Part shown: one piece after another, positions 4,748 through 32,801 of the stretch
Layout of the letters: each line of letters begins with the position of its first letter
How positions within the stretch are numbered: position 1 is the stretch's first letter
IMG/VR virus record: IMGVR_UViG_2778261315_000002
DNA length: 36,286 nucleotides
From: a virus
Taxonomy: Duplodnaviria; Heunggongvirae; Uroviricota; Caudoviricetes
Direction: 5' to 3' (one strand)
Notes under the pieces: model-generated
What the model was told of the DNA's origin: nothing
What the model saw: only the letters and a program-made list of their open reading frames with translations
Database searches by the model: none
Position numbers and translations under genes: made by a program

Positions 4748-7700
4748 GCGTCGTAACCCCCCTGATCGCTGTAGTTACTCCTGGCTTTTGCCTTCAGCCT
4801 GCGTTCACGTTCATCAAGCTGGCGGGCCACCTCCCGCGCAATATCCTGCGCACTTTGTCCAGGCTGCGTCTGGATGATGATCTGCGTCGGTGCCTCAATC
4901 CTGTAAACGGGCGGCACAGTGGCTGCGCGACTCACCATCGCTTCTCCACCTTTCGCGGGAAGTGCCAAAGGGTGCAACGGTGGAAGCTCTGCTGGCGCGG
5001 CAGCAACGCCCATCATTCCGGCAACAACGGCAGCCAGTGCAGCTGTATTTCTCCGGCTGGTCACATTTGCCGGGCCATTAACAATTTCCGGCCCGTTTTC
5101 ACCGACGATGCCAAACTGCCCGCGCGGGATATACCCGCCGCTGTCATACATCCCCGCAAAGCCATATCCCCATGACGGAAAACCACCCGATGGCATCATC
5201 ACTTTACCGTCTGCATTCACCGTCGCAGTTTGCTGACGCGTCACGCTTTCCGGCAGTTTTGCCTTTGCGGCCTCTTTACTGACAATGCCGAGCTTCTCCA
5301 GCAACCAGGAAACGCCGGATTTCAGGGAGTCCAGCGGATGCATGACCATATTCAGCCCTTCCGCCAGTGCCTCCCCGAATCGTCGCCCCATTGCCGCTGC
5401 GCTCTGCAGTTCGGCAGAGGTCGACTTAACGGGCGTCAGCAGATCAGTAAACCAGCCCCACAGCGCCTGTACTTTGTCGCCAATCCACTGAAACACAGGC
5501 TTAAGTGGTTCGAATGCAGCACTGATGGGACCTGCCGCCGCTTTGAATCCTTCCACCACGCCACCGAGAAATGCGGTGATGGGTTGCCAGTATTTCCAGA
5601 CAACCAGCGCCACGCCCGCCAGTGCAGTAACCACAAGACCTATCGGACTGAGCAGAGCACCTAACAGACCAGATATGGCATACAGGGCAACGCGCAGCAT
5701 CACCAGCGGACCAGATGCAAGCACACGAAGCACCGCGCCTGCGGCAGCCAGTCCACCGCGCAGTACCGCCAGAGGATTCATAAACATCACAGCAACAGCA
5801 CGTAAAGCGGATAATCCAGACCGCAATAGTGCAACCGGCGCACCTGCTACAGTTTTCAGGACATTTCCCGTCAGTGATGCCGTACGGCGCAAAGACGACA
5901 ACGGCGCAGTAAGTAAACCCGCTGCATTACCCGCTGAAGCAAGCCCGTGTCGCAGCACTGCCAGTGGTGCGCCTGCCAGCCAGGACAACGCGTTGCTGGT
6001 TCGGGTTACTGCTGCCGTAACGGAAGGTAATGTTTTGATACCCAGCACAGAGAATCCCAGACGGATGACTGCCAGCGGCCCCAGCACTGCAGCCAGCGCC
6101 ACCGCTAAGGTGCCGAGGCCCACGGTAACGGCAGCCACCACAGCGGCTACTTTCATCAGAGTGCCCGTCAGTTCCGGGTTAGCTTCCACCCAGCGACGCA
6201 ACGCCCCCGTGACGCTTTTCACCGTGTACAGAATATCCATCAGCGGCTGGCGCAGCGTTTCGCCCAGGCTACTGAAGGTGTTCTGCGCTCCGGTTTTGAC
6301 CAGCAACCACTGAGCAGAAAGTGAGTCCTTATTGATGTCGGATTCTTTCTGCATGGAGCCGAGCGCATCATTGCCCGCTGTCAGTTTTAACTGACGCTGC
6401 AGTTCCGGCAGGTTGTTTGCCAGTTTCGCCGCGTCATCGCCAAACTCTTTACCAAACAACATGGTCATGGCAGACAGACGCTTATCCTGCGGCAGTGCGT
6501 TCACCTTCTCCAGCACACGCTGGATAGTTCCCATCGCATCCTTCGTCATCTGCTTTTCAATCACTTCAGGATTGAGTTTCAGCAGATTCATCCCTTCAAA
6601 GAAACTCTTGCTTTGCATGGTGGCAATGGACAATTCACGCACCATCGCGTTTGCTGCACTGGCTGCAACCTCTGGCGCAGCACCCAGTGTCAGGAAGGTG
6701 GAACCCAGCGCCGCCGCTTTACGATAATCCAGACGATCAGCCACACTGCCCAGGCGTTGCATGACATCAATGATGTCTGCCCCTTTCGACATGGCGTTAT
6801 CATCCAGATAGTTCAGCGCATCACCGACCTGTTCAATATTGCGGGTAGGGATTTTGTAGAGCTGGGCGATTTTCCCCAGACTTTCTGACAGTTCATCCGC
6901 TGGCAGCTCAAAGGCTGTTGCCGCCTTTGCTGCCGTGCTGGCGAAGGCCAGCAGGTCACGTTTCTGGTCTTCCCAGCTGTCGTCAGGGTTTGCGACGTTC
7001 ATGCGCGCACCACCTTCAACCAGTGCAGCGAAGTCTACCGCACCGTTTTCCATCGGCAACTGTTCACTGGCAGCCTTGATGGCATCCTGCATTTCATAAA
7101 AACGTGCAGTGCGGTTGCCATTATCGTCACGCAGACCATTGACCTGCTTTGCCACACCTTTCATGGCATCTTCCATGCTGGTATAGCTTTTTACTGCCGC
7201 CATCACTGGCGTCCCCATTGCCAGCCCTGCAGCCGTGGTGGTGGCTCCGGCTCCTGCGATGCGATCGCGCACCTCCAGCGAACGGGCATAACTGGCACGC
7301 GCTGCATTCATCCTGCGCTGAGCTTCCCCCAGTCGCTTCAGCCGCGCCTCCTGTTTCGACAGTTCCTGGTTATAACGTGATGTTTCACGGGCTAAACGGG
7401 CAGTTGCTCCCGCATCATCTTTCGCAGAAATTCCCGCCCGGTACAGTTCTGCACGCACAAGCGCCGTTTGCTTCTGCAAATATTTTTGTTGTTCTTCCAG
7501 ACGTTGGACTGCCAGCGTTTGCCGACCTAAAGCTACAAGGTGCCGTTGTGATGGTTGTTCCATCGACTCCAGCTCAGAGCTAAGCAAATTAGCTTTCTGT
7601 CTGGCATAGTTCAGCCTGTCGCCTAACTTCTTGTTATCGGCCTGCAGCTTGCGAAATTTTTCCAGGCTGTTACCCGCCTGATTGAGTTGCTTTAATGCGT

Positions 7701-10144: not shown

Positions 10145-10711
10145 TCAGGGGGATTCATTGCTCTTATTTGCCGGAAATTTTCTATAAATTGTGGAAACAC
10201 CCACATCAAAAATCAGTGCAATACGCTGTCTTGATTCTCCGGCCTCGAGTAAACGCCCAATCTGTGCCCACTGTTCGGTGGTCAACTTAGGACGGCGTCC
10301 ACCTACTCTGCCTTTGGCACGAGCTGCAGCCAGCCCTGCCCTGGTACGTTCAACTATCAGTTCGCGTTCCATTTCAGCCAGGGCACCCATGACATGAAAA
10401 AAGAAACGGCCCATTGGGGTGCTGGTATCAATACTGTCAGTCAGGCTTCGGAAATTCACGCCTTGCTGACGCAACTCTTCTATCAGCGTAACAAGATGCC
10501 GCATACTGCGCCCCAACCTGTCCAGCTTCCAGACAACCAGCGTGTCTCCTGCCGATAGTGTCCTGAGCAGTTTTTTCAACCCTGGTCTGTCGGACTTAGT
10601 GCCACTGATTTTATCCTCAAAAATCCGCTCACATCCCGCGCAGTTCAGTGCATTACGTTGCAAATCGGTGTTCTGGTCATTTGTTGACACGCGTACATAG
10701 CCAATAAGCAT
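10145..10711 (-). CDS. Site-specific DNA invertase, serine recombinase (Hin/Gin/Cin/Pin family)
   Basis: 188 aa from the ATG at 10711 (MLIGYVRVSTNDQ...DRLGRS...C-terminal HTH); near colinear with Hin/Gin as I recall them; the track ORF extends 15 codons upstream to 10756. Confidence 0.9.
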   Translation of the reverse strand: MLIGYVRVSTNDQNTDLQRNALNCAGCERIFEDKISGTKSDRPGLKKLLRTLSAGDTLVVWKLDRLGRSMRHLVTLIEELRQQGVNFRSLTDSIDTSTPMGRFFFHVMGALAEMERELIVERTRAGLAAARAKGRVGGRRPKLTTEQWAQIGRLLEAGESRQRIALIFDVGVSTIYRKFPANKSNESP

Positions 10712-10766
10712 GAGCATCCCCCTGAATAAAAACCGGGGATGATGCCAGTTAACCATTATCTCTGCA

Positions 10767-10792
10767 TTTTCATAAACGTTGGTTTGGGAGAA
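10767..10792. repeat. Invertase crossover site, invertase-proximal (gix/hix-like, 26 bp)
   Basis: Reverse complement TTCTCCCAAACC-AA-CGTTTATGAAAA matches the site at 12453-12478 at 22 of 26 positions (first 14 identical) and fits the Hin-family site architecture of two imperfect inverted half-sites around a 2-bp core. Confidence 0.75.
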
Positions 10793-11365
10793 GGCTCTGC
10801 ATTACCTGTTGGTGTCCCTGTTCCGTGGCCTTCAGCCACTCCGCCAACAGGCTGGCTGAAATGCAATGGTGCGGCTTTTTCTGCTGAAGAATACCCGGAA
10901 CTGGCAAAGGCTTACCCGACAAATAAATTGCCAGATTTACGTGGTGAGTTTATTCGTGGCTGGGATGACGGGCGAGGGATTGATGAGGGGCGCATACTTC
11001 TCAGTTGTCAGAGTTTTGCTTTCCAGGACCATGCGCACGCTCTGCCAACCGGAGTGGGTAATCCGTCAGACCAGATGGAAAGCGATATCTATGCGGTTTT
11101 CAACGATGTACCAGAAATACCCAGTGCGGCCCTGAGTCCATCGTCGTCAGGAACATCATGGGACGCAACCAGTAGGGCAGACAAGGTAATCCTTTATCGC
11201 AAGGACCTTTCACCAACAGGTAATAACAACGCAATAGCGACCGGATTACCACCATTCAGGACTTACAGGGCATCGACCTCAGACGGTGTTACTCATCCGT
11301 CCGTGTACGCATCTGAAACCCGTCCGCGCAACATTGCATTTAACTACATCGTGAGGGCTGCATAA
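10781..11365 (+). CDS. Alternate tail-fibre C-terminal cassette (promoterless; fuses to the constant part of H after inversion); P2 gpH C-terminus-like
   Basis: Frame open from the crossover site; encodes GLGE-GSALPVGVPVPWPSATPPTGWLKCNGAAF...LPDLRGEFIRG...NIAFNYIVRAA, resembling the P2 gpH C-terminal region. The GLGE junction matches LGLGE in H at its crossover site. The ATG at 10739 in the track is probably not a real start. Confidence 0.7.
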   Translation, partial: GLGEGSALPVGVPVPWPSATPPTGWLKCNGAAFSAEEYPELAKAYPTNKLPDLRGEFIRGWDDGRGIDEGRILLSCQSFAFQDHAHALPTGVGNPSDQMESDIYAVFNDVPEIPSAALSPSSSGTSWDATSRADKVILYRKDLSPTGNNNAIATGLPPFRTYRASTSDGVTHPSVYASETRPRNIAFNYIVRAA

Positions 11366-11970
11366 TGGCGAAAGCAAAATTAAACAGTGCGTTTATTGCC
11401 ACCGTGGCAGGAGAAATCACTGTGTACAACTACCGGGGCGACACCCGCGAATACATATCCTCATCGGTTGAGTATCTGCCTGTGGGGGTGGGTATTCCTG
11501 CCAATTCCTGTACCGATGCGCCCGGCACACATAAGGCTGGTTATGCAATCTGCCGTTCTGCAGATTTTAACTCATGGGAATATGTGCCAGACCATCGCGG
11601 TGAAATTGTCTATGGCATCGAAACGGGGGAATCAAAAGAAATTACTGTGCCGGGGGATTACCCTGAAAATACGACCACTTTTGCCCCATTAACGCCATAC
11701 GATAAATGGGATGGTGAGAAATGGGTAACAGATACCGAGGCACAGCATAGCGCCGCAGTAGATGCAGCAGAAGTACAGCGCCAGTCTCTGATTGATGCTG
11801 CTATGGCTTCCATCAGTCTGATTCAGCTGAAATTGCAGGCCGGACGTAAACTGACGCAGGCAGAAACAACCCGCCTTAACGCTGTGCTGGATTACATTGA
11901 CGCGGTGACGGCAATAGATACCAGCACCGCGCCTGATATTATTTGGCCTGTATTCCCTGAGACTGATTAA
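11365..11970 (+). CDS. Tail fibre assembly chaperone (Tfa / Mu U' type), cognate to the alternate fibre cassette
   Basis: 201 aa, start overlapping the cassette stop (TAATG); C-terminal ...DTSTAPDIIWPVFPE typical of Tfa chaperones; opposite orientation to the tail operon, as expected inside an invertible segment. Confidence 0.7.
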   Translation: MAKAKLNSAFIATVAGEITVYNYRGDTREYISSSVEYLPVGVGIPANSCTDAPGTHKAGYAICRSADFNSWEYVPDHRGEIVYGIETGESKEITVPGDYPENTTTFAPLTPYDKWDGEKWVTDTEAQHSAAVDAAEVQRQSLIDAAMASISLIQLKLQAGRKLTQAETTRLNAVLDYIDAVTAIDTSTAPDIIWPVFPETD

Positions 11971-16005: not shown

Positions 16006-16821
16006 TCAGAGAGATGCTGTTTTGTTGAAGTAATCCTTCAATAACTCCATCTTAAAGATGACCTGGAGTTTACAACCGGGAAATGAATCATTTACAGTTA
16101 CAGTCATCCCCAGGAACTCAGACTGAACCTTTATCAAATCATTAGGTATTTTGTGAAGAATATCTCTAACTTCTTTCTCTACCGTTGTGGGAACCAAGTC
16201 AAAACTAACAATAAACTCACTTGACGAATTATGCTGAACTTTAGACTTTATTTCCTTTAAAGCTTTTTTAGACAAGTTGAGAATATCAAAAACTTTCTCA
16301 AGATTATCAAATAAAACATACCTGCGTTCAAAATCAACAACCTTAGCTGCTAATTCATTAAAATCAGTTCTGAGCCGCCCCCTAGCACCCACAGCTGATT
16401 GCAAAGACCTAAATGCAAACTCCAATTTAGATGCCATATTGGCCTCAATTGCATTCAGATTACAAATAGGTTGAGGCAACTCTTTAAAAACCATGCCCGA
16501 ATGGCAGAAAGGAAGTGTAGGAATATCTCCCAAACCAGCATTCTGATTTAGGGTATTTCTTATCCAGACAGCCCCTAATTCAAAGCTAATCCAACTTCTT
16601 TTCACAGAATTAGGACTGATTAAATATATAGCCGCAATACAATTAACAAGGCCATCTTCTATTACTTTTAGGAAATTTTGCCCAGCCTTAATCGTTTCTC
16701 CATCTGAAGATACAAAAACGCTGACAAATCCAGCAAACTCATCTTCGATTGCATCTTTAATGATTTTTGCCAATTCTTTTTCTTCAGTAATATGAGATAA
16801 AAAAATCAACTTCTCAGACAT
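16006..16821 (-). CDS. Cargo protein with N-terminal TIR-like domain and uncharacterised ~160-aa C-terminal domain (candidate anti-phage defence gene)
   Basis: 271 aa from the ATG at 16821 (AGAGAG Shine-Dalgarno; the track ORF starts at a TTG at 16839). N-terminus KLIFLSH...VSVFVSSDGETIKAGQNFL...IAAIYLISPNSVKRSWISFELG fits the TIR pattern. Region is markedly AT-rich and interrupts the S-V junction, which is contiguous in P2. Confidence 0.55.
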   Translation of the reverse strand: MSEKLIFLSHITEEKELAKIIKDAIEDEFAGFVSVFVSSDGETIKAGQNFLKVIEDGLVNCIAAIYLISPNSVKRSWISFELGAVWIRNTLNQNAGLGDIPTLPFCHSGMVFKELPQPICNLNAIEANMASKLEFAFRSLQSAVGARGRLRTDFNELAAKVVDFERRYVLFDNLEKVFDILNLSKKALKEIKSKVQHNSSSEFIVSFDLVPTTVEKEVRDILHKIPNDLIKVQSEFLGMTVTVNDSFPGCKLQVIFKMELLKDYFNKTASL

Positions 16822-16937
16822 CACATACTCTCTAACCAATTGATAGATTTACAATTTAGCAAGAAAGAAAATGTGATACTAAGAAGAAGATCATAAAATC
16901 AGTATCTTCCCCAAAGAATCTTTCTCTAATCAGCACC

Positions 16938-25720: not shown

Positions 25721-26404
25721 TTAATTTGAAGAATCTTTTTTGAAGGTATCCAAATACCCTCTCAAATCAAAATCTTTATTACCCCTAAATTTTTCAACAT
25801 CTTTCTTGTCTGCATCTCTTTGTTCTCTAATCTTCTTGTTTAGTTTTTCAATCAAAGATTGTCTTTCGGCCTCTATTTCTTTTATTTTTTCAAAATGGAG
25901 TTTCGCCTTTCGTGCTTCTTCAGTCTTTACAATTATTTCATAACAAACACACAAAAGAAAACAAACCGTGGAAACGGTCATCCCTGCATCCACAACTATG
26001 AAGTAACCAATATCAACATTTTCTTTTATCTTATCTAAAGGCACAATCAAACATCCAAGAACCATAAAAAGCCCCACCACAAGATAAATAAAATTAATAG
26101 AGTTACGATAACTCAATTTAAAATATTCATCTTTTTGAGCTTCAAATAATTCCACCACATTACTTGGAGCCTTACTGTTTAACTCAATATCTTTAATCTT
26201 ATCCTGATAATCCACAAATCTTTTTACCAGCAAACCAATTAAAATAGCACCAATTAAAGATAATGCTTTAGATATAAGAGAACCAATTTCTAACAATATA
26301 CCAGTCTGATTGTAAATCCCATAAAAAACAGAAGCGAAAAGTCCCCCTATCAAGATAGATAAGCTCAACTGTATAATAAAACGCTCTATTCTTTTATTAA
26401 TCAT
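25721..26404 (-). CDS. Cargo operon gene 2: small integral membrane protein (4 predicted TM helices, Lys/Glu-rich coiled-coil tail); candidate defence or abortive-infection effector
   Basis: 227 aa from the ATG at 26404, which overlaps the upstream stop (ATGA); hydrophobic stretches FIIQLSLSILIGGLFASVFYGIY, ILLEIGSLISKALSLIGAILIGLLV, FIYLVVGLFMVLGCLIVPL, GYFIVVDAGMTVSTVCFLLCVCYEIIV; AT-rich. Confidence 0.5.
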   Translation of the reverse strand: MINKRIERFIIQLSLSILIGGLFASVFYGIYNQTGILLEIGSLISKALSLIGAILIGLLVKRFVDYQDKIKDIELNSKAPSNVVELFEAQKDEYFKLSYRNSINFIYLVVGLFMVLGCLIVPLDKIKENVDIGYFIVVDAGMTVSTVCFLLCVCYEIIVKTEEARKAKLHFEKIKEIEAERQSLIEKLNKKIREQRDADKKDVEKFRGNKDFDLRGYLDTFKKDSSN

Positions 26405-27396
26405 GGATTTATCACCCCAGCATCCAACAACCTTAACAACCATTCAACCATTTCATCACAAACACTATCAACAACTGGTAAACCCTTACTATATTCAATG
26501 CTAACATTGTCTTTTATTTGAATCTCATCATTTTTCAAAATCCCTGCACCTTTTAACTCAATAGTCAACATTTCATCCCTGTTATCAATTAGCCCCTCGG
26601 TTATCTTCCGAAGTAAATCTTGCTCATTATCACTGGCTCGATATTTATAACCAATAGAAATATCAATTGTAAGGTGTTCCTTTATTTCTGTATCAGGGGT
26701 ACTGTTTTTACGCAATTCTTCAACACGATGCTCACCAATTAAAGAACGCAATAACTCACTAGCAGCATCGTCAACGCCATTACCATTATATGTCAACGGC
26801 AGTTTTAAACTAACATTTTTAATGTTATTTCTTCTCAAGAATTCATTACTAATGCTTAAATTATTTGCCTGCAAAACAATAAAGTTTTCAACATCTACTC
26901 GTAGATTTTCCTTTAAAATAAAATTAATGTAATTTTCAATGTCTTTTATTCTTATTGCTCTACTTTGTAAAATCACGACATGATTCTTAACAACACCAAT
27001 ATAGGCAAAACTATCCAAATATTCTTTAACATCGCCACCCGCAATTCTGAAAGCCTCATATTCCAATTTCGGATTTTTATATTCCGTAACATCAAATACT
27101 GGAATACTTCCGCCAGGCTCTATGTACACAATTTCTGCAAAGAACATTCCGTTACGTTCAAATGAATTTGACATAACCATATGAGCATGCGTTGCCACAT
27201 CAGGATCAGAGTCCTTCGTTTCTAGAAAATGAACTCTATCTTGAACAGTACGAAACTTATGAGTCACAATCTCAGATAATCTGCTTTGTAAGTCTGATGT
27301 TAAAAGTGCATCTTTTTTAGGAAGCATAACTGCATGTCTGTAATGCAGTGCCTTGATTTTGGTATTGTTAGCAGCCATATAATTTCCAGTTTCCAT
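26401..27396 (-). CDS. Cargo operon gene 1: soluble protein of unknown function (candidate defence sensor or enzyme)
   Basis: 331-aa ORF (alternative ATG 6 codons in); no motif I can assign; AT-rich; translationally coupled to the downstream membrane protein. Confidence 0.5.
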   Translation of the reverse strand: METGNYMAANNTKIKALHYRHAVMLPKKDALLTSDLQSRLSEIVTHKFRTVQDRVHFLETKDSDPDVATHAHMVMSNSFERNGMFFAEIVYIEPGGSIPVFDVTEYKNPKLEYEAFRIAGGDVKEYLDSFAYIGVVKNHVVILQSRAIRIKDIENYINFILKENLRVDVENFIVLQANNLSISNEFLRRNNIKNVSLKLPLTYNGNGVDDAASELLRSLIGEHRVEELRKNSTPDTEIKEHLTIDISIGYKYRASDNEQDLLRKITEGLIDNRDEMLTIELKGAGILKNDEIQIKDNVSIEYSKGLPVVDSVCDEMVEWLLRLLDAGVINP

Positions 27397-28290: not shown

Positions 28291-30663
28291 TTAATACAGG
28301 TTTCGCCACTTATCATCTTCCTGCAAACGCTGGTTCCGATAGAAGATACGCAGGCCTGCTCCTGATGGAATACTGCCGCCGCGAAGCAGTAAATCGACCT
28401 CTTTCTCGCTGCCATCAATTCCCCTGGACTTCAGTTCATACACGAGCTGCTGTCGCTGATGATCTGTAATTCGCTGTTTGTAGTCTTTAAGCCGTTTCGG
28501 TTTCACAAGGCGTAACCTTGCTGCCAGTTCCCGGCGCTCTTTTTTGCTCATACTGTGCAGGTAATCGTGCAACTCCTTGTCATCCATGCGAGTGATATCC
28601 GTTCTGGTATCTCCATCAGCTGATTTGTCTTTCCCTTGTTGGTACAAATTTTCAGCAAGGGGACAGTTATTGCCACGAGTCCAAGGGGCGCAAGCGCCCT
28701 GGTCGGCTGCCGCCTCCTGAACGTCAACGGCTTTACGAACCATTTTCCACTTCACTGCATGAGTGCAGATCTTGCCCTCTGCAATGGGTGACCAGATGCC
28801 ATAAATACGAATACCGTGATCGCCATAGGCGGTCGGCTCTTCGTTGATTTCATAAGCGGTTCTGATGAGGTGATATTTACGGGGAACCAGTACGCCGCCC
28901 TGCTTCATGATGTAGGTGGCAAAGCAACCAGCATCAGCTGCAGCCAGAATGGCATCAAGGCGCGGGTTATCCAGTACCGGCGCACCTGCTTTTTTGTCAC
29001 CCTGTTGCCTTGCCGCCTGACCAGCCAGCAATCGCAGTTCACGGTAAGCCTGACGCCCCGGAATGCCAAAGAAGCGGAATTGCTGAACACGATGCAGAGA
29101 CGCCCAGGCATTAACGTATTCAGCGTTATCACGCAGAGATTTACCCGTTTCCTTGCTGATCTCGCCAGCCAGACCACGCCCGTCAATGTTCTTACTGATG
29201 TATTTCGCGATGTAGCTTGTTGGCGTACCTTTGCGCGGGTTAATCAACTCAGACTTAAAGCGCGGCCCAGTGTTATTGCCCAGTTCCTCGCGGTCTTCAC
29301 GGATGGCAAACTTACGCAGTAATGCAGTGATGGCGCGGCGGTCTTTTTTGCGCATAAAACACAACAGGTGCCAGTGAACTGTACCGTCATGATGCGGCTC
29401 AGCCACCCGCACGCCATACCACCGCAATCCGGCTTTGTGCATCGCCTTACGAAATGCAGCAAACATGCCGACCAGATAATCACTGCTTTGTCTTACCGTC
29501 GCATTTGTCCAAGTTGGGTTGGGCCTGCCATTATTTAGCGTGGAATGGAAACGTGACGGACAGGTGATGGTGTAGAAAACGGCGCAGTCACCGCGCATTT
29601 CCGCGATAAGCTCCAGGCCTTTAACACAGGCCATCATCTCATTGCGGCGATGCGCAGGGTTGCTGCTGCTGGCGTTTACCACATCCTCCATGTCCAGCGT
29701 GTCGCCGTCTTCGTTCACCAGTTCATGAGAACGAAAAAACTCCAGCGACTTACGGCGCTGCTCACGTTTATGCATCACGGCTTCATAGCTGACATAGGGA
29801 GATGCTTTTTTGCTGACCAGGCAGACAGCACGCAACTGCTCTTCCCGCCATTCGCAACGCATCTTCCATAATTTCCGGTACCACCAGTCAGCGCACAACA
29901 TACGCGCCAGCGAACCCGGAATGAGTTCATAGGGCACGGGTTTACGGCGGTTTCTTTTCCGGCGGAGTTGCTCAAACGCAGGCGGGATGACATCCAGACG
30001 CAGGGTTTCCGCTGCCACCTTTTCCCATGTCTTGCGGATTTCTTCTGGCTTAACGTCATCGGTGACATACAAATCGCCACAAGCTGCATCAAGGCACATG
30101 CTCATATGCGCAGCTACCAGGGTGGACAGGCGTTTCACCTGATCCTGACTCATTTCAGGCAGGATCAGCAGGCCGTCCAGCCCTTCATGGCTTGCCATAA
30201 AGCGAAAAGAAGTGGATAGCTGACAGTCGCGTACATGCTCCAGCCGTTCCAGACATGGCTTAATCGTCTCACGCAAATAGCGGGAATAAGCCTTTGGCCT
30301 GCCCAGGCTGCTGATGTATTCAATACGTTGCATCAGCGGCTTGCTGATATGGGAAGGCTGGGCATTGACGTCCGCCAGAATGACCATATCTGGATTAAAA
30401 CGCTGCTGCTCATGCGCCAGCTTTGCCCGACTAATGAGCTTATCCTGCTCCATTTCGCGCTGGACAGGATCACGGGATTCATTAAAGAAATAACGCTCCC
30501 AGACCTGATCACTCAGTGCCTCGCGGCGCAGCTGTTCCTGCTCGTTATCGGCAGCGTACAGAGCGATCAGGTTTGAAAGCGCAGAAACTGAAGATTGCTC
30601 TTCTGTCTCTACGTAAGGATTGATTGCTTTTTTCTCAGCATTCCAGGAATAGCTGTAGTTCAT
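28291..30663 (-). CDS. A: Replication initiation endonuclease A (rolling-circle initiator, HUH motif)
   Basis: About 790 aa from the ATG at 30663 (the track ORF extends to a TTG at 30714); HUH-like VHWHLLCF motif and downstream Tyr-containing region (YIAKYISK); P2 gpA position and similarity. Confidence 0.85.
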
Positions 30664-31493
30664 TACGCAATCTCCAGTTCGAGCTGTGAAGGCTGCAAAC
30701 CATTCGACAGCCAATCAGAAACTGAAGGTGGGCGAACAGCTTCAATTGCACCTTTTAAAATTGCGCAACGGTTTTTCAGAATGACAGCTTTCAGCTCCTT
30801 TTCCGTCAGATTGCGCGAATACTCAGCCTCCTGAATAGCCCGCGTCAGCTCAGGATATTTGCTATTAAATTTGGGGACATTGCAGGCAAGATTTGTACTG
30901 TCGGCAGTCGCCAGTGGGTAATTTCCCAACACACGACCGTCAAGCATGCGCAAACCATGAACAGCTGTTTTGAAATTGTGTCGGCAATAAATTGCTTCAA
31001 AAGCGTCCTGCATACGACGATGCCAGTGCGCAGTTCTGATAGCCGCATATTCACCAGACGATCCAAAGCAGACACGAGGCCATTCACGACATAGCTCGAT
31101 AAGCCGATCGATTGACTCGTGCAGATGCCAGACCGGAGTTGCCTTCCCGTAGAACATTTTCGGAACTTCGTTTATCAGGGCATCATTGTCACGTTCACCT
31201 CCGTCCACAACATCAGGAATGACAAAAAAAGCGACCTTAGGATGGTGGTAATAGTTCAGGAGCCATTTATAAAAATCACTCCAGTTAATTTTTAGCCCAC
31301 GCACCCATGCAGAAAATGCGCCGTTATCAATGCCGACGACCTGAGCGTGCTGAATGGACGCCGCAATCTGATCTGGTCGTACATAGGATACGAAAGCGCC
31401 AGCTCCGCTCACCGCAATACGATGAACGTCGCCAGCACTTCCCCAGACAGGCGTCCCATGGAAATGATGAATTCCGTGGTGCATTTCTTTCAC
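30663..31493 (-). CDS. Hypothetical protein between dam and A; possible TIM-barrel transglycosylase-like (TGT/DpdA-like) DNA-modification enzyme, speculative
   Basis: 276-aa ORF overlapping both neighbours (GTGA with the dam stop, TAATG with the A start). Motifs [17 protein letters not shown] and LATADST loosely parallel the three Asp-containing motifs of tRNA-guanine transglycosylases; this is a weak, by-eye resemblance only. Confidence 0.3.
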
Positions 31494-32344
31494 ACTTGCA
31501 CCCCGAAAATAACAGTAGAGTCACGTCCCCTACTAAAATCGGCACTAAACCAATTAGCAGATTTAGTGGCAATCATCTCTGTTGCAAATTTTCCCTCCCC
31601 CGCTGCAACGCCGATGCTGCGTTTCGCCCTGATGTAGTGGTGAGTGAAATTACGATAAAGGGACCGGGTCAAAGACGTGTTACTGTTAGAAACAATGACC
31701 GGATGTCCTTCTGATGACCGATGTTCAAGAATGGATGCCAGGTGATACTGATCATCTTCAGTGAAACCATCAGTGCGATAGCCGGAAAACGTACCGTCAT
31801 AAGGCGGATCGCAATACACCACATCCCCCACCTTCAACATCGCCAGCGTTTCATCAAAGCTGGCGCAGATAAACGTTGCCCGCTGGGCTTTCTCTGCAAA
31901 TGCGCGAATTTCTTTTTCAGGGAAATACGGATTTTTATAATTACCGTAGGGAATGTTGAAATGCCTGCTCTTGTTATAGCGACATAAACCACGGTAACCG
32001 TGACGATTGAGATACAGGAAATATACCGCTTTCATGAAATCAGTAATTTCAGTGGAGTAATTAAACTCCTGCCTTATGTTGTAATAAGCCACCTCCCTGT
32101 TTGCTTCCTCAAATAAAGCTCTGGCACGAGATATAAACGCCTCACAATCAGCAGCAACCTTTTTATAGAGGTTGATTAAATCAGGATTAATATCCGCAAC
32201 AAGATAGCTGGGATAATCCGTCTCCATCATCACTGCACAGGAACCCGCGAAAGGTTCAACCAGTCGCGGGCCAGCAGGAAGATGCTTTTTCAGTTCGGAC
32301 ATTATGGCGGTTTTATTTCCTGCCCATTTCAGGATGGTGCTCAT
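31490..32344 (-). CDS. dam: DNA N6-adenine methyltransferase (Dam family)
   Basis: 284 aa from the ATG at 32344 (GGAGGTG Shine-Dalgarno; ATGA overlap with the upstream stop): KWAGNK, FAGS and DPPY motifs. Confidence 0.85.
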
Positions 32345-32568
32345 ACAGCACCTCCGTTGTAATGTTTGCCTTTCAGCTCTGCGATTTCCTGACAGGTAAT
32401 GCAAAGCTGCACACCCGGAATGGCACGGCGGCGTGCTGGCGGAATTGGCGCTTCACACTCAACGCAAAGCACGCGGGACACGCCCGGCGTTTTGGCACGG
32501 GCAGCACGGATATGGCGTTGGCGTTCTTCTTCAACGCGCTGCTGTACGAGATCCATTGCATCAGCCAT
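32341..32568 (-). CDS. TraR/DksA-family C4 zinc-finger protein
   Basis: 75 aa with CVEC...CITC pattern. Confidence 0.65.
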   Translation of the reverse strand: MADAMDLVQQRVEEERQRHIRAARAKTPGVSRVLCVECEAPIPPARRRAIPGVQLCITCQEIAELKGKHYNGGAV

Positions 32569-32801
32569 CAGTGGATCTCCTGCGCTTCGTTCTGGATTGC
32601 TTCAGCAGTCACACGCAGCAGTTCTGCCGCTTCGACGTGGTTTAGCTGGCGGGAGGTGATATGACACGCCAGGCTATCGAGGCGAGCAGCCATTGCTTCA
32701 GCCCTTGCCCGGCGTTCTTCCAGACGAGCCTCTGTCAGTAAAAGATTAAGACCTGCATCATCCGGTCCGGTTTTGGTCGTGAGGGTTTCAATATTACGCA
32801 T
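32568..32801 (-). CDS. Hypothetical early-region protein
   Basis: 77 aa from the ATG at 32801 (AGGAGA Shine-Dalgarno); position of the small orfs upstream of P2 gene A. Confidence 0.4.
   Translation of the reverse strand: MRNIETLTTKTGPDDAGLNLLLTEARLEERRARAEAMAARLDSLACHITSRQLNHVEAAELLRVTAEAIQNEAQEIH

Follow-up and report, generated by a model that had tools for sequence, protein, structure and literature searches.

A hypothetical gene between dam and replication gene A of an Escherichia coli P2-like prophage probably encodes a phage DpdA of the singleton class

What is encoded by the gene that sits between dam and replication gene A in the P2/186-like Escherichia coli prophage held as IMG/VR record IMGVR_UViG_2778261315_000002? 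The whole stretch analysed (36,286 nucleotides, called the window below) is this prophage, whose insertion site lies between rcdA and ybjL. The gene (30663–31493, minus strand) is read from a GTG start into 276 residues, and its product is labelled "hypothetical" in RefSeq, UniProt and the other named sources that we examined. A first-pass annotation had picked out by eye three aspartate-containing motifs in the protein, loosely reminiscent of tRNA-guanine transglycosylases (TGTs) and their DNA-modifying DpdA relatives, and had proposed that the gene forms a two-enzyme DNA-modification unit with its Dam neighbour. Here we place the protein in its family, predict its fold and locate its conserved active-site residues. 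We conclude that it is probably a singleton ('DpdA-only') DpdA of the gamma-proteobacterial phage type, a TGT-superfamily DNA guanine transglycosylase that exchanges a deazaguanine into phage DNA using a host-made base; we refer to the gene as dpdA.

The 276-residue protein matches PHROG 887 ("queuine tRNA-ribosyltransferase") with an E value of 2.4e-96. That PHROG also takes in the verified DpdA of Escherichia phage CAjan (8.2e-96) and those of phages 7-11 and MED16. We built a family alignment of 81 diverse sequences, reaching down to 27% identity, whose profile aligns with CAjan DpdA over 172 columns in hhalign (98.85% probability, E = 3.9e-17). The shared PHROG and this profile match bear out the TGT/DpdA relationship first suspected from the motifs. 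An AlphaFold2 model calculated on 45 homologues (predicted local distance difference test, pLDDT, 89.1; predicted template modelling score, pTM, 0.87) has eight alternating strands and helices, the arrangement of a TGT-like (beta/alpha)8 barrel. A TIM barrel is thus predicted, and with the aspartates at strand ends. Among viral predicted structures there are 31 matches at E ≤ 1e-3; every named one is annotated as a queuine/queuosine tRNA-ribosyltransferase, and the others are unnamed or uncharacterised. One of the 31 is a protein of Vibrio phage nt-1.

Only six columns are invariant among the 81 sequences: D53, D91, H120, H176, D195 and S196, in the numbering of a 273-residue form to which three is added for the 276-residue form. 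The three aspartates chosen by eye are therefore the same three that the whole family retains. In the model, all six residues lie at, or at most three residues after, the C-terminal ends of strands 3, 4, 5, 7 and 8, which form the catalytic face of the predicted TIM barrel. In the 276-residue form the corresponding motifs are GIDNGAF (54–60), a stretch around Asp94 (90–99) and LATADST (194–200).

The best-defined of these sites are the first and the last. Asp56 (Asp53; codon 31326–31328, minus strand), in GIDNGAF at the end of strand 3, is the predicted general acid/base. It aligns with the aspartate of LDSGAFS in CAjan DpdA, with a phenylalanine four residues on, and the D-x-G-[GA]-F pattern is common to this site and to D89 of E. 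coli TGT (TDSGGFQ). Asp198 (Asp195; codon 30900–30902, minus strand), in TADST at the end of strand 8, is the predicted nucleophile, and the D195–S196 pair aligns with CDSS of CAjan DpdA. In the Salmonella Montevideo DpdA, the strand-3 loop comes after the general acid Asp95, the base-stacking Phe99 stands four residues further on, and the nucleophile Asp256 ends strand 8, ahead of the strand-8 insertion (PMC10164549). D53/F57 and D195 stand at the places of Asp95/Phe99 and Asp256, and the roles we assign to D53 and D195 are predicted by analogy with mutagenesis of TGT and of the S. Montevideo enzyme (PMC10164549). A low-confidence alignment had offered Asp182 (LRMLD) as the nucleophile instead; we rejected it because no more than 38% of the family keep this residue, whereas Asp195 is kept by 100%. 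The middle residue, Asp94 (Asp91; codon 31212–31214, minus strand), in IPDVVDGG just past strand 4, is a candidate for base recognition. The base-recognition aspartate is D156 in TGT (Zymomonas mobilis numbering) and D130 in S. Montevideo DpdA.

The protein has close and distant relatives among DpdA-only phages, a class that is already catalogued. DpdA-only phages are the largest group in the survey of Hutinet 2019 (76 phages), with a distinct cluster in phages of gamma-proteobacteria (PMC6884629); its Supplementary Data 1 includes Salmonella phage SEN1, through YP_009217891 (PMC6884629). This SEN1 protein, gp38, and gp39 of phage SW9 share ~75% identity with ours over 97% of its length. Both phages are P2-like Peduoviridae with the gene in the same slot, its stop overlapping the start of gene A; unlike the window, they have a DUF5405 gene upstream in place of Dam. 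SEN1 gp38 and SW9 gp39 are also the closest viral relatives of the DpdA (gp38) of Pantoea phage MED16 (PMC8306585), for which HHpred gave 99.18% to the Thermotoga maritima TGT 2ASH (PMC8306585). MED16 DpdA is 55% identical to our protein over 265 residues and belongs to the same PHROG, and MED16 likewise has no preQ0 pathway and encodes its own N6-adenine methyltransferase, ~1.2 kb upstream of dpdA. It differs in being a lytic siphovirus, in having a methyltransferase of another family that is not adjacent, and in the shorter C terminus of its DpdA. MED16 virion DNA holds 354 dADG (~0.13% of G) and 633 N6-methyldeoxyadenosines (m6dA) per 10^6 nucleotides (PMC8306585). The DpdA of Salmonella phage 7-11, a singleton of the gamma-proteobacterial cluster, is 34–36% identical; 7-11 is a large lytic phage, unlike the window, and its DpdA, at 234 residues as annotated, lacks the C-terminal ~70 residues. 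Its DNA contains 50 dADG per 10^6 nucleotides, ~0.02% of G (PMC6884629). The conserved core of the family spans residues ~6–205, the C-terminal ~70 being peculiar to an enterobacterial subgroup. Our protein therefore belongs to the catalogued DpdA-only class and is no new kind of system.

The DpdA1 enzymes of Escherichia phages CAjan and 9g are more remote (only ~22% identity) but fall in the same PHROG, and as in the window they act without a DpdB partner and have no CxCxxC motif. The profile match to CAjan DpdA spans strands 2–8 and aligns the DxGAF aspartate, two histidines and the DS(S/T) aspartate. Deletion of dpdA from CAjan abolishes dPreQ0 in virion DNA (PMC6884629). Unlike the window, CAjan and 9g carry their own folE, queD, queE and queC, and they replace 25–32% of G, compared with levels roughly a thousand-fold lower in the singleton clade. 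Further away still is the DpdA of the S. Montevideo Dpd island (PDB 7UI4), which is 413 residues long, with 128 of them inserted after strand 8 and with a zinc site of the form CXCX2CX22H, requires the ATPase DpdB and lies within a dpdA–K island. None of the Dpd-island features sought (the strand-8 zinc insertion, dpdB–K neighbours, the PADLOC model) is found in the prophage, where the neighbours are phage early genes.

How, then, would the enzyme work in this setting? From its position in the early lytic operon, we expect dpdA to be expressed along with dam and the initiator gene A, and in lytic growth only. If it works as TGTs and other DpdAs do, the enzyme would flip guanine out of duplex phage DNA and put a 7-deazaguanine base in its place, as a post-replicative exchange. 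The 831-bp dpdA segment is 100% identical between the window and E. coli strain Combat2C1 (NZ_CP019243.1), and the annotation of the entire prophage in that genome lists no que, folE or amidotransferase gene, which fits the DpdA-only 'group 3'. A prophage without genes for preQ0 synthesis points to the host queuosine pathway (FolE, QueD, QueE, QueC) as the source of the base, which would be preQ0 or its amide, ADG. E. coli makes preQ0. Expressed alone in E. coli, the 9g DpdA puts host-made preQ0 into plasmid DNA (PMC6884629). Judging from MED16 and 7-11, the product would be sparse, occupying ~0.02–0.13% of G (a few tens of sites in each genome), and the mark would probably be dADG (or dPreQ0) and site-specific. 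Dam would separately methylate GATC adenines, giving virion DNA with two marks. Activity on the DNA of this phage, the chemical species, the target motif and any protective benefit are all argued here from these relatives. No DpdC- or QueC-like enzyme that would produce the amide form is known for the singleton clade.

A number of results weigh against this assignment. Scans of Pfam (including the TGT family, PF01702), NCBIfam and PADLOC with the 276-residue protein gave no match, and none of the 81 family members matches PF01702 at E ≤ 1; the DpdAs of CAjan, 7-11 and MED16 are likewise without a Pfam match. Profile searching for a TGT or DpdA thus succeeded in one half, finding CAjan DpdA, but failed in the other, the Pfam TGT family. 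Against PDB sequences, phmmer and two profile hmmsearches returned chance matches only (GCN4 coiled coils, a coat protein). In hhalign the family profile was not significant against E. coli TGT alone or against an eight-sequence TGT profile drawn from TGT genes in 'phage' records, and adding CAjan-like sequences still produced no TGT link (probability <1%). When CAjan DpdA was the query of a large homology search, the proteins recovered were all ~70% identical, and the family gained no depth. No link to cellular TGT or bacterial DpdA was obtained at the level of hidden Markov models. With our own profile comparisons not significant, the connection to cellular TGTs rests on structure and on the published MED16 HHpred result. 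Foldseek searches of the PDB do not separate TGTs from generic TIM barrels, the best match being a weak, generic one to CitE (E = 1.3e-3).

The active site and the biology of the clade add to these reservations. The zinc site of TGT and bacterial DpdA is absent: our protein has five cysteines, none in a CxCxxC motif and none conserved above 46%, compared with a CDCYTC motif at 302–307 of E. coli TGT. At the D91 column, CAjan DpdA has a serine, with an aspartate three residues later, and this offset makes the middle aspartate less certain. The clade members in which deazaguanine has been measured, MED16 and 7-11, are neither of them P2-like. The sparse dADG of MED16 impaired none of the restriction enzymes tried (PMC8306585), and phage Orion carries a singleton and has no modification, its host being without preQ0 synthesis (PMC6884629).

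One view, which we consider unlikely, is that the sparse mark of singleton DpdAs is a site-specific signal and not a general anti-restriction shield. The mark might then lie next to or within Dam sites (characterised DpdA targets contain GA, and the Dam site is GATC) or at replication or packaging sites. ADG might be used directly instead of preQ0, and the mark might help the phage to evade a single defence or to control transactions of its own DNA. Such a role would fit the fixed position of dpdA, which overlaps or abuts gene A in 84 of 89 sampled loci.

Other explanations dispute the enzyme itself, and all three are disfavoured, by gene context, by missing domains or by the link to DNA-modifying DpdAs. 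The gene could be TIM-barrel cargo whose catalysis differs or has decayed, such as a non-inserting DNA glycosylase, or it could have no part in DNA modification. The weak, generic PDB matches favour this, as does the fact that no curated family claims the protein. However, six invariant strand-end residues in 81 sequences and a family of 882 representatives (clustered at 50% identity, E ≤ 0.001) point to an enzyme under selection, and the similarity to the verified CAjan DpdA is highly significant; we consider this alternative very unlikely.

A Cap10-like, protein-directed member of the TGT fold would act on a deazaguanine-conjugated protein or sequester a deazaguanine metabolite, for instance as a phage counter-measure against host systems with QueC or TGT homologues (type IV cyclic-oligonucleotide-based anti-phage signalling systems, QatABCD, Dpd). 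The difference in Z between the structural comparisons (16.0 versus 14.8) is too small to discriminate. The prophage contains no cGAS/DncV-like nucleotidyltransferase (CD-NTase), Cap9/QueC-like or other partner gene, the protein matches no PADLOC model and groups by sequence with verified DNA-modifying phage DpdAs, and related singleton phages do have dADG in their DNA. We judge this possibility very unlikely. Least probable of all is a true TGT that alters host or phage tRNA in a takeover of the queuosine pathway: the fold is common to TGTs and the PHROG and RefSeq phage annotations read 'queuine tRNA-ribosyltransferase', but that label was transferred by homology, a tgt gene is already present in the host, all phage family members tested to date act on DNA (PMC6884629, PMC10516641), and the protein differs from TGTs (bacterial, ArcTGT, QTRT1/2) in having neither a PF01702 match nor the CxCxxC zinc subdomain, and in its length of 273–276 residues as against 375 in E. 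coli TGT (~100 shorter, and ~140 shorter than bacterial DpdA). Assignments to Cap10, to bacterial Dpd and to tRNA-TGT were each tried and set aside on the absent partner genes and zinc site.

Returning to a singleton DpdA as the preferred identity, its neighbours are arranged as a compact minus-strand run. In NZ_CP019243.1, the prophage annotation begins with integrase, CI, CII, Fil, DUF5347, DUF2732 and a TraR/DksA zinc finger, and continues with Dam, "hypothetical protein", replication endonuclease A, a DinI-like gene and P2-type structural genes. In the window, the zinc-finger gene, dam, dpdA and gene A are all on the minus strand. The first (32341–32568) encodes a 75-residue TraR/DksA-type C4 zinc-finger protein (PF01258, 4.4e-11; TIGR02419, 1.5e-18; phrog_54), and its TGA overlaps the ATG of dam as ATGA at 32341–32344, a coupling that the first-pass annotation had described correctly.

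The dam gene (31490–32344) encodes a 284-residue N6-adenine DNA methyltransferase with KWAGNK at residue 6 and the DPPY catalytic motif at residue 179, both read directly in the sequence. Family models agree with the motifs: PF02086 is matched at 3.8e-75 (253 bits, cut-off 22), TIGR00571 with 313 bits (cut-off 114.85) and the PADLOC orphan methyltransferase model at 3.5e-108. By its sequence, the product is clearly a Dam-family (D12-class) enzyme, as had been proposed. It scores 280 bits with the E. coli Dam equivalog model, below the cut-off of 441, and specificity for GATC is assumed from family membership.

The junction of dam with dpdA depends on which start codon is used. With the GTG start, the TGA of dam and the start of dpdA overlap as GTGA, with GGGGTG 5 nucleotides upstream of the GTG. 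The RefSeq/PGAP start is an ATG at 31484, 9 nucleotides downstream, which yields the 273-residue form (WP_001420002.1) and a 5-nucleotide gap after dam. The GTGA overlap noted earlier thus holds for the longer form but not for the shorter. The starts of homologues have been called either way and conservation sets in only at residue ~8–10, so the junction is best described as overlapping or nearly so. At the other end, the TAA of dpdA and the ATG of gene A share one base (TAATG), again as originally read. Gene A (28291–30663) encodes the P2-type replication endonuclease, annotated 'replication endonuclease' in NZ_CP019243.1. It has 790 residues in the window and 778 as annotated in Combat2C1, a difference which, given identical dpdA segments, points to an indel within A between the two prophages.

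Is the association with Dam a fixed one? The family is large, with 1929 cluster representatives at 90% identity (E ≤ 1e-5) alongside the 882 counted above, and the exact protein occurs on at least 1000 contigs. Of 5426 complete E. coli genomes, 103 (1.9%) carry dpdA at ≥95% DNA identity, 102 of them at ≥99%. These homologues, contigs and genomes mark the ORF as a real gene. P2-type dam is found in 1238 of the same 5426 genomes (~23%), and most dam-bearing E. coli P2-like prophages have no dpdA. We compared 89 related loci, a biased sample made up of the best 80 of 268 viral contigs and 9 genome contigs (the genome-contig scan gave 10 loci). Gene A directly follows dpdA in 84 of them. The gene upstream is dam in 51 loci, DUF5405 in 24 (A follows dpdA in 23 of these) and, in 10, the zinc-finger gene. 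The proposed two-enzyme unit therefore stands in so far as both enzyme families are confirmed and adjoin here, but the pairing is not obligate (of 84 P2-like carriers, 51 have Dam upstream, the rest DUF5405 or no gene in that place), and these variable contexts rule out an obligate Dam–DpdA module.

In P2-like phages of Klebsiella, dam and A are immediate neighbours, and comparison with one of these phages, 4LV2017, delimits the dpdA-bearing segment. By blastn, homology is confined to 31569–32700 (95%) and 30300–30588 (98%), and in 4LV2017 the two blocks are 195 bp apart. The intervening 980 bp of the window (30589–31568), without counterpart in dam–A phages, take in ~26 codons from the end of dam, the whole of dpdA and ~25 codons from the start of A. 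The breaks in homology inside dam and A (31569 and 30588) thus mark the limits of an inserted or exchanged cassette. From the varying contexts, the differing frequencies of dam and dpdA and these breaks, we conclude that dpdA is a mobile accessory gene with a preferred slot, for which pairing with Dam is common and not obligatory.

Some loci show other arrangements of the two genes. A 421-residue protein on one Logan contig (P0011) carries the N-terminal ~190 residues of Dam fused to DpdA starting at its residue 46, and in locus L078 a short Dam remnant (5777–5986) stands alone ahead of dpdA. The 276-residue form was also clustered at 90% identity with 284-residue Dam proteins, which looks like a clustering artefact.

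Homologues with 63–75% identity also occur in lambdoid prophages. In the E. coli locus L015, the gene (5001–5810) lies between a gene with a weak holin Pfam match and a Peptidase_M15_4 (endolysin-type) gene, and the layout of L016 (E. coli; 5001–5804) is similar. In L021 and L106 it follows an ORF, which we take to be NinB-like (unverified), in an apparent nin region. Lytic-only expression is likewise expected of these nin and holin/endolysin regions, and the lambdoid and P2-like placements together indicate that several lytic-cycle operons have each acquired this cargo gene.

Three other loci in the window deserve mention. Between the virion-morphogenesis genes and baseplate gene V, a position unusual for P2-like phage cargo, lies a gene for a 277-residue TIR-domain protein (16006–16839, minus strand; Pfam TIR_2, 5.4e-8; weak PADLOC matches to PDC-S66, SpbK and ThsB; phrog_29177, unknown function), possibly a prophage-borne anti-phage defence gene. 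Two overlapping minus-strand ORFs of 240 and 331 residues (25721–26443 and 26401–27396) occupy the interval between the portal and DinI-like genes, presumably a known variable cargo hotspot of P2-like phages. Neither has a Pfam match, their only PADLOC match is a marginal one to ZorB, and the longer belongs to phrog_3482 (unknown function; 4.1e-29). A recombinase-family gene (10145–10756, minus strand) adjoins tail-fibre assembly ORFs on the opposite strand, and the region 10145–11970 suggests a P2/Mu-type switch of host range through an invertible tail-fibre segment.

The prophage DpdA changes nothing in what is known of the enzyme family; its value is to correct a gap in annotation and to provide a model in E. 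coli that is tractable. The protein, which ~2% of complete E. coli genomes encode under the label "hypothetical", can be annotated as a DpdA-family DNA transglycosylase. The two measured examples of DpdA-only phages have only ~10–30 modified guanines per genome. Host glycosylases that attack deazaguanine-modified DNA are described, so the mark may also be costly. For the study of DpdA-only function, an inducible P2-like prophage in E. coli, whose queuosine pathway is fully mapped, is a convenient system, and, being temperate, it would be the first genetically convenient one in which to test whether the mark acts as a site-specific signal.

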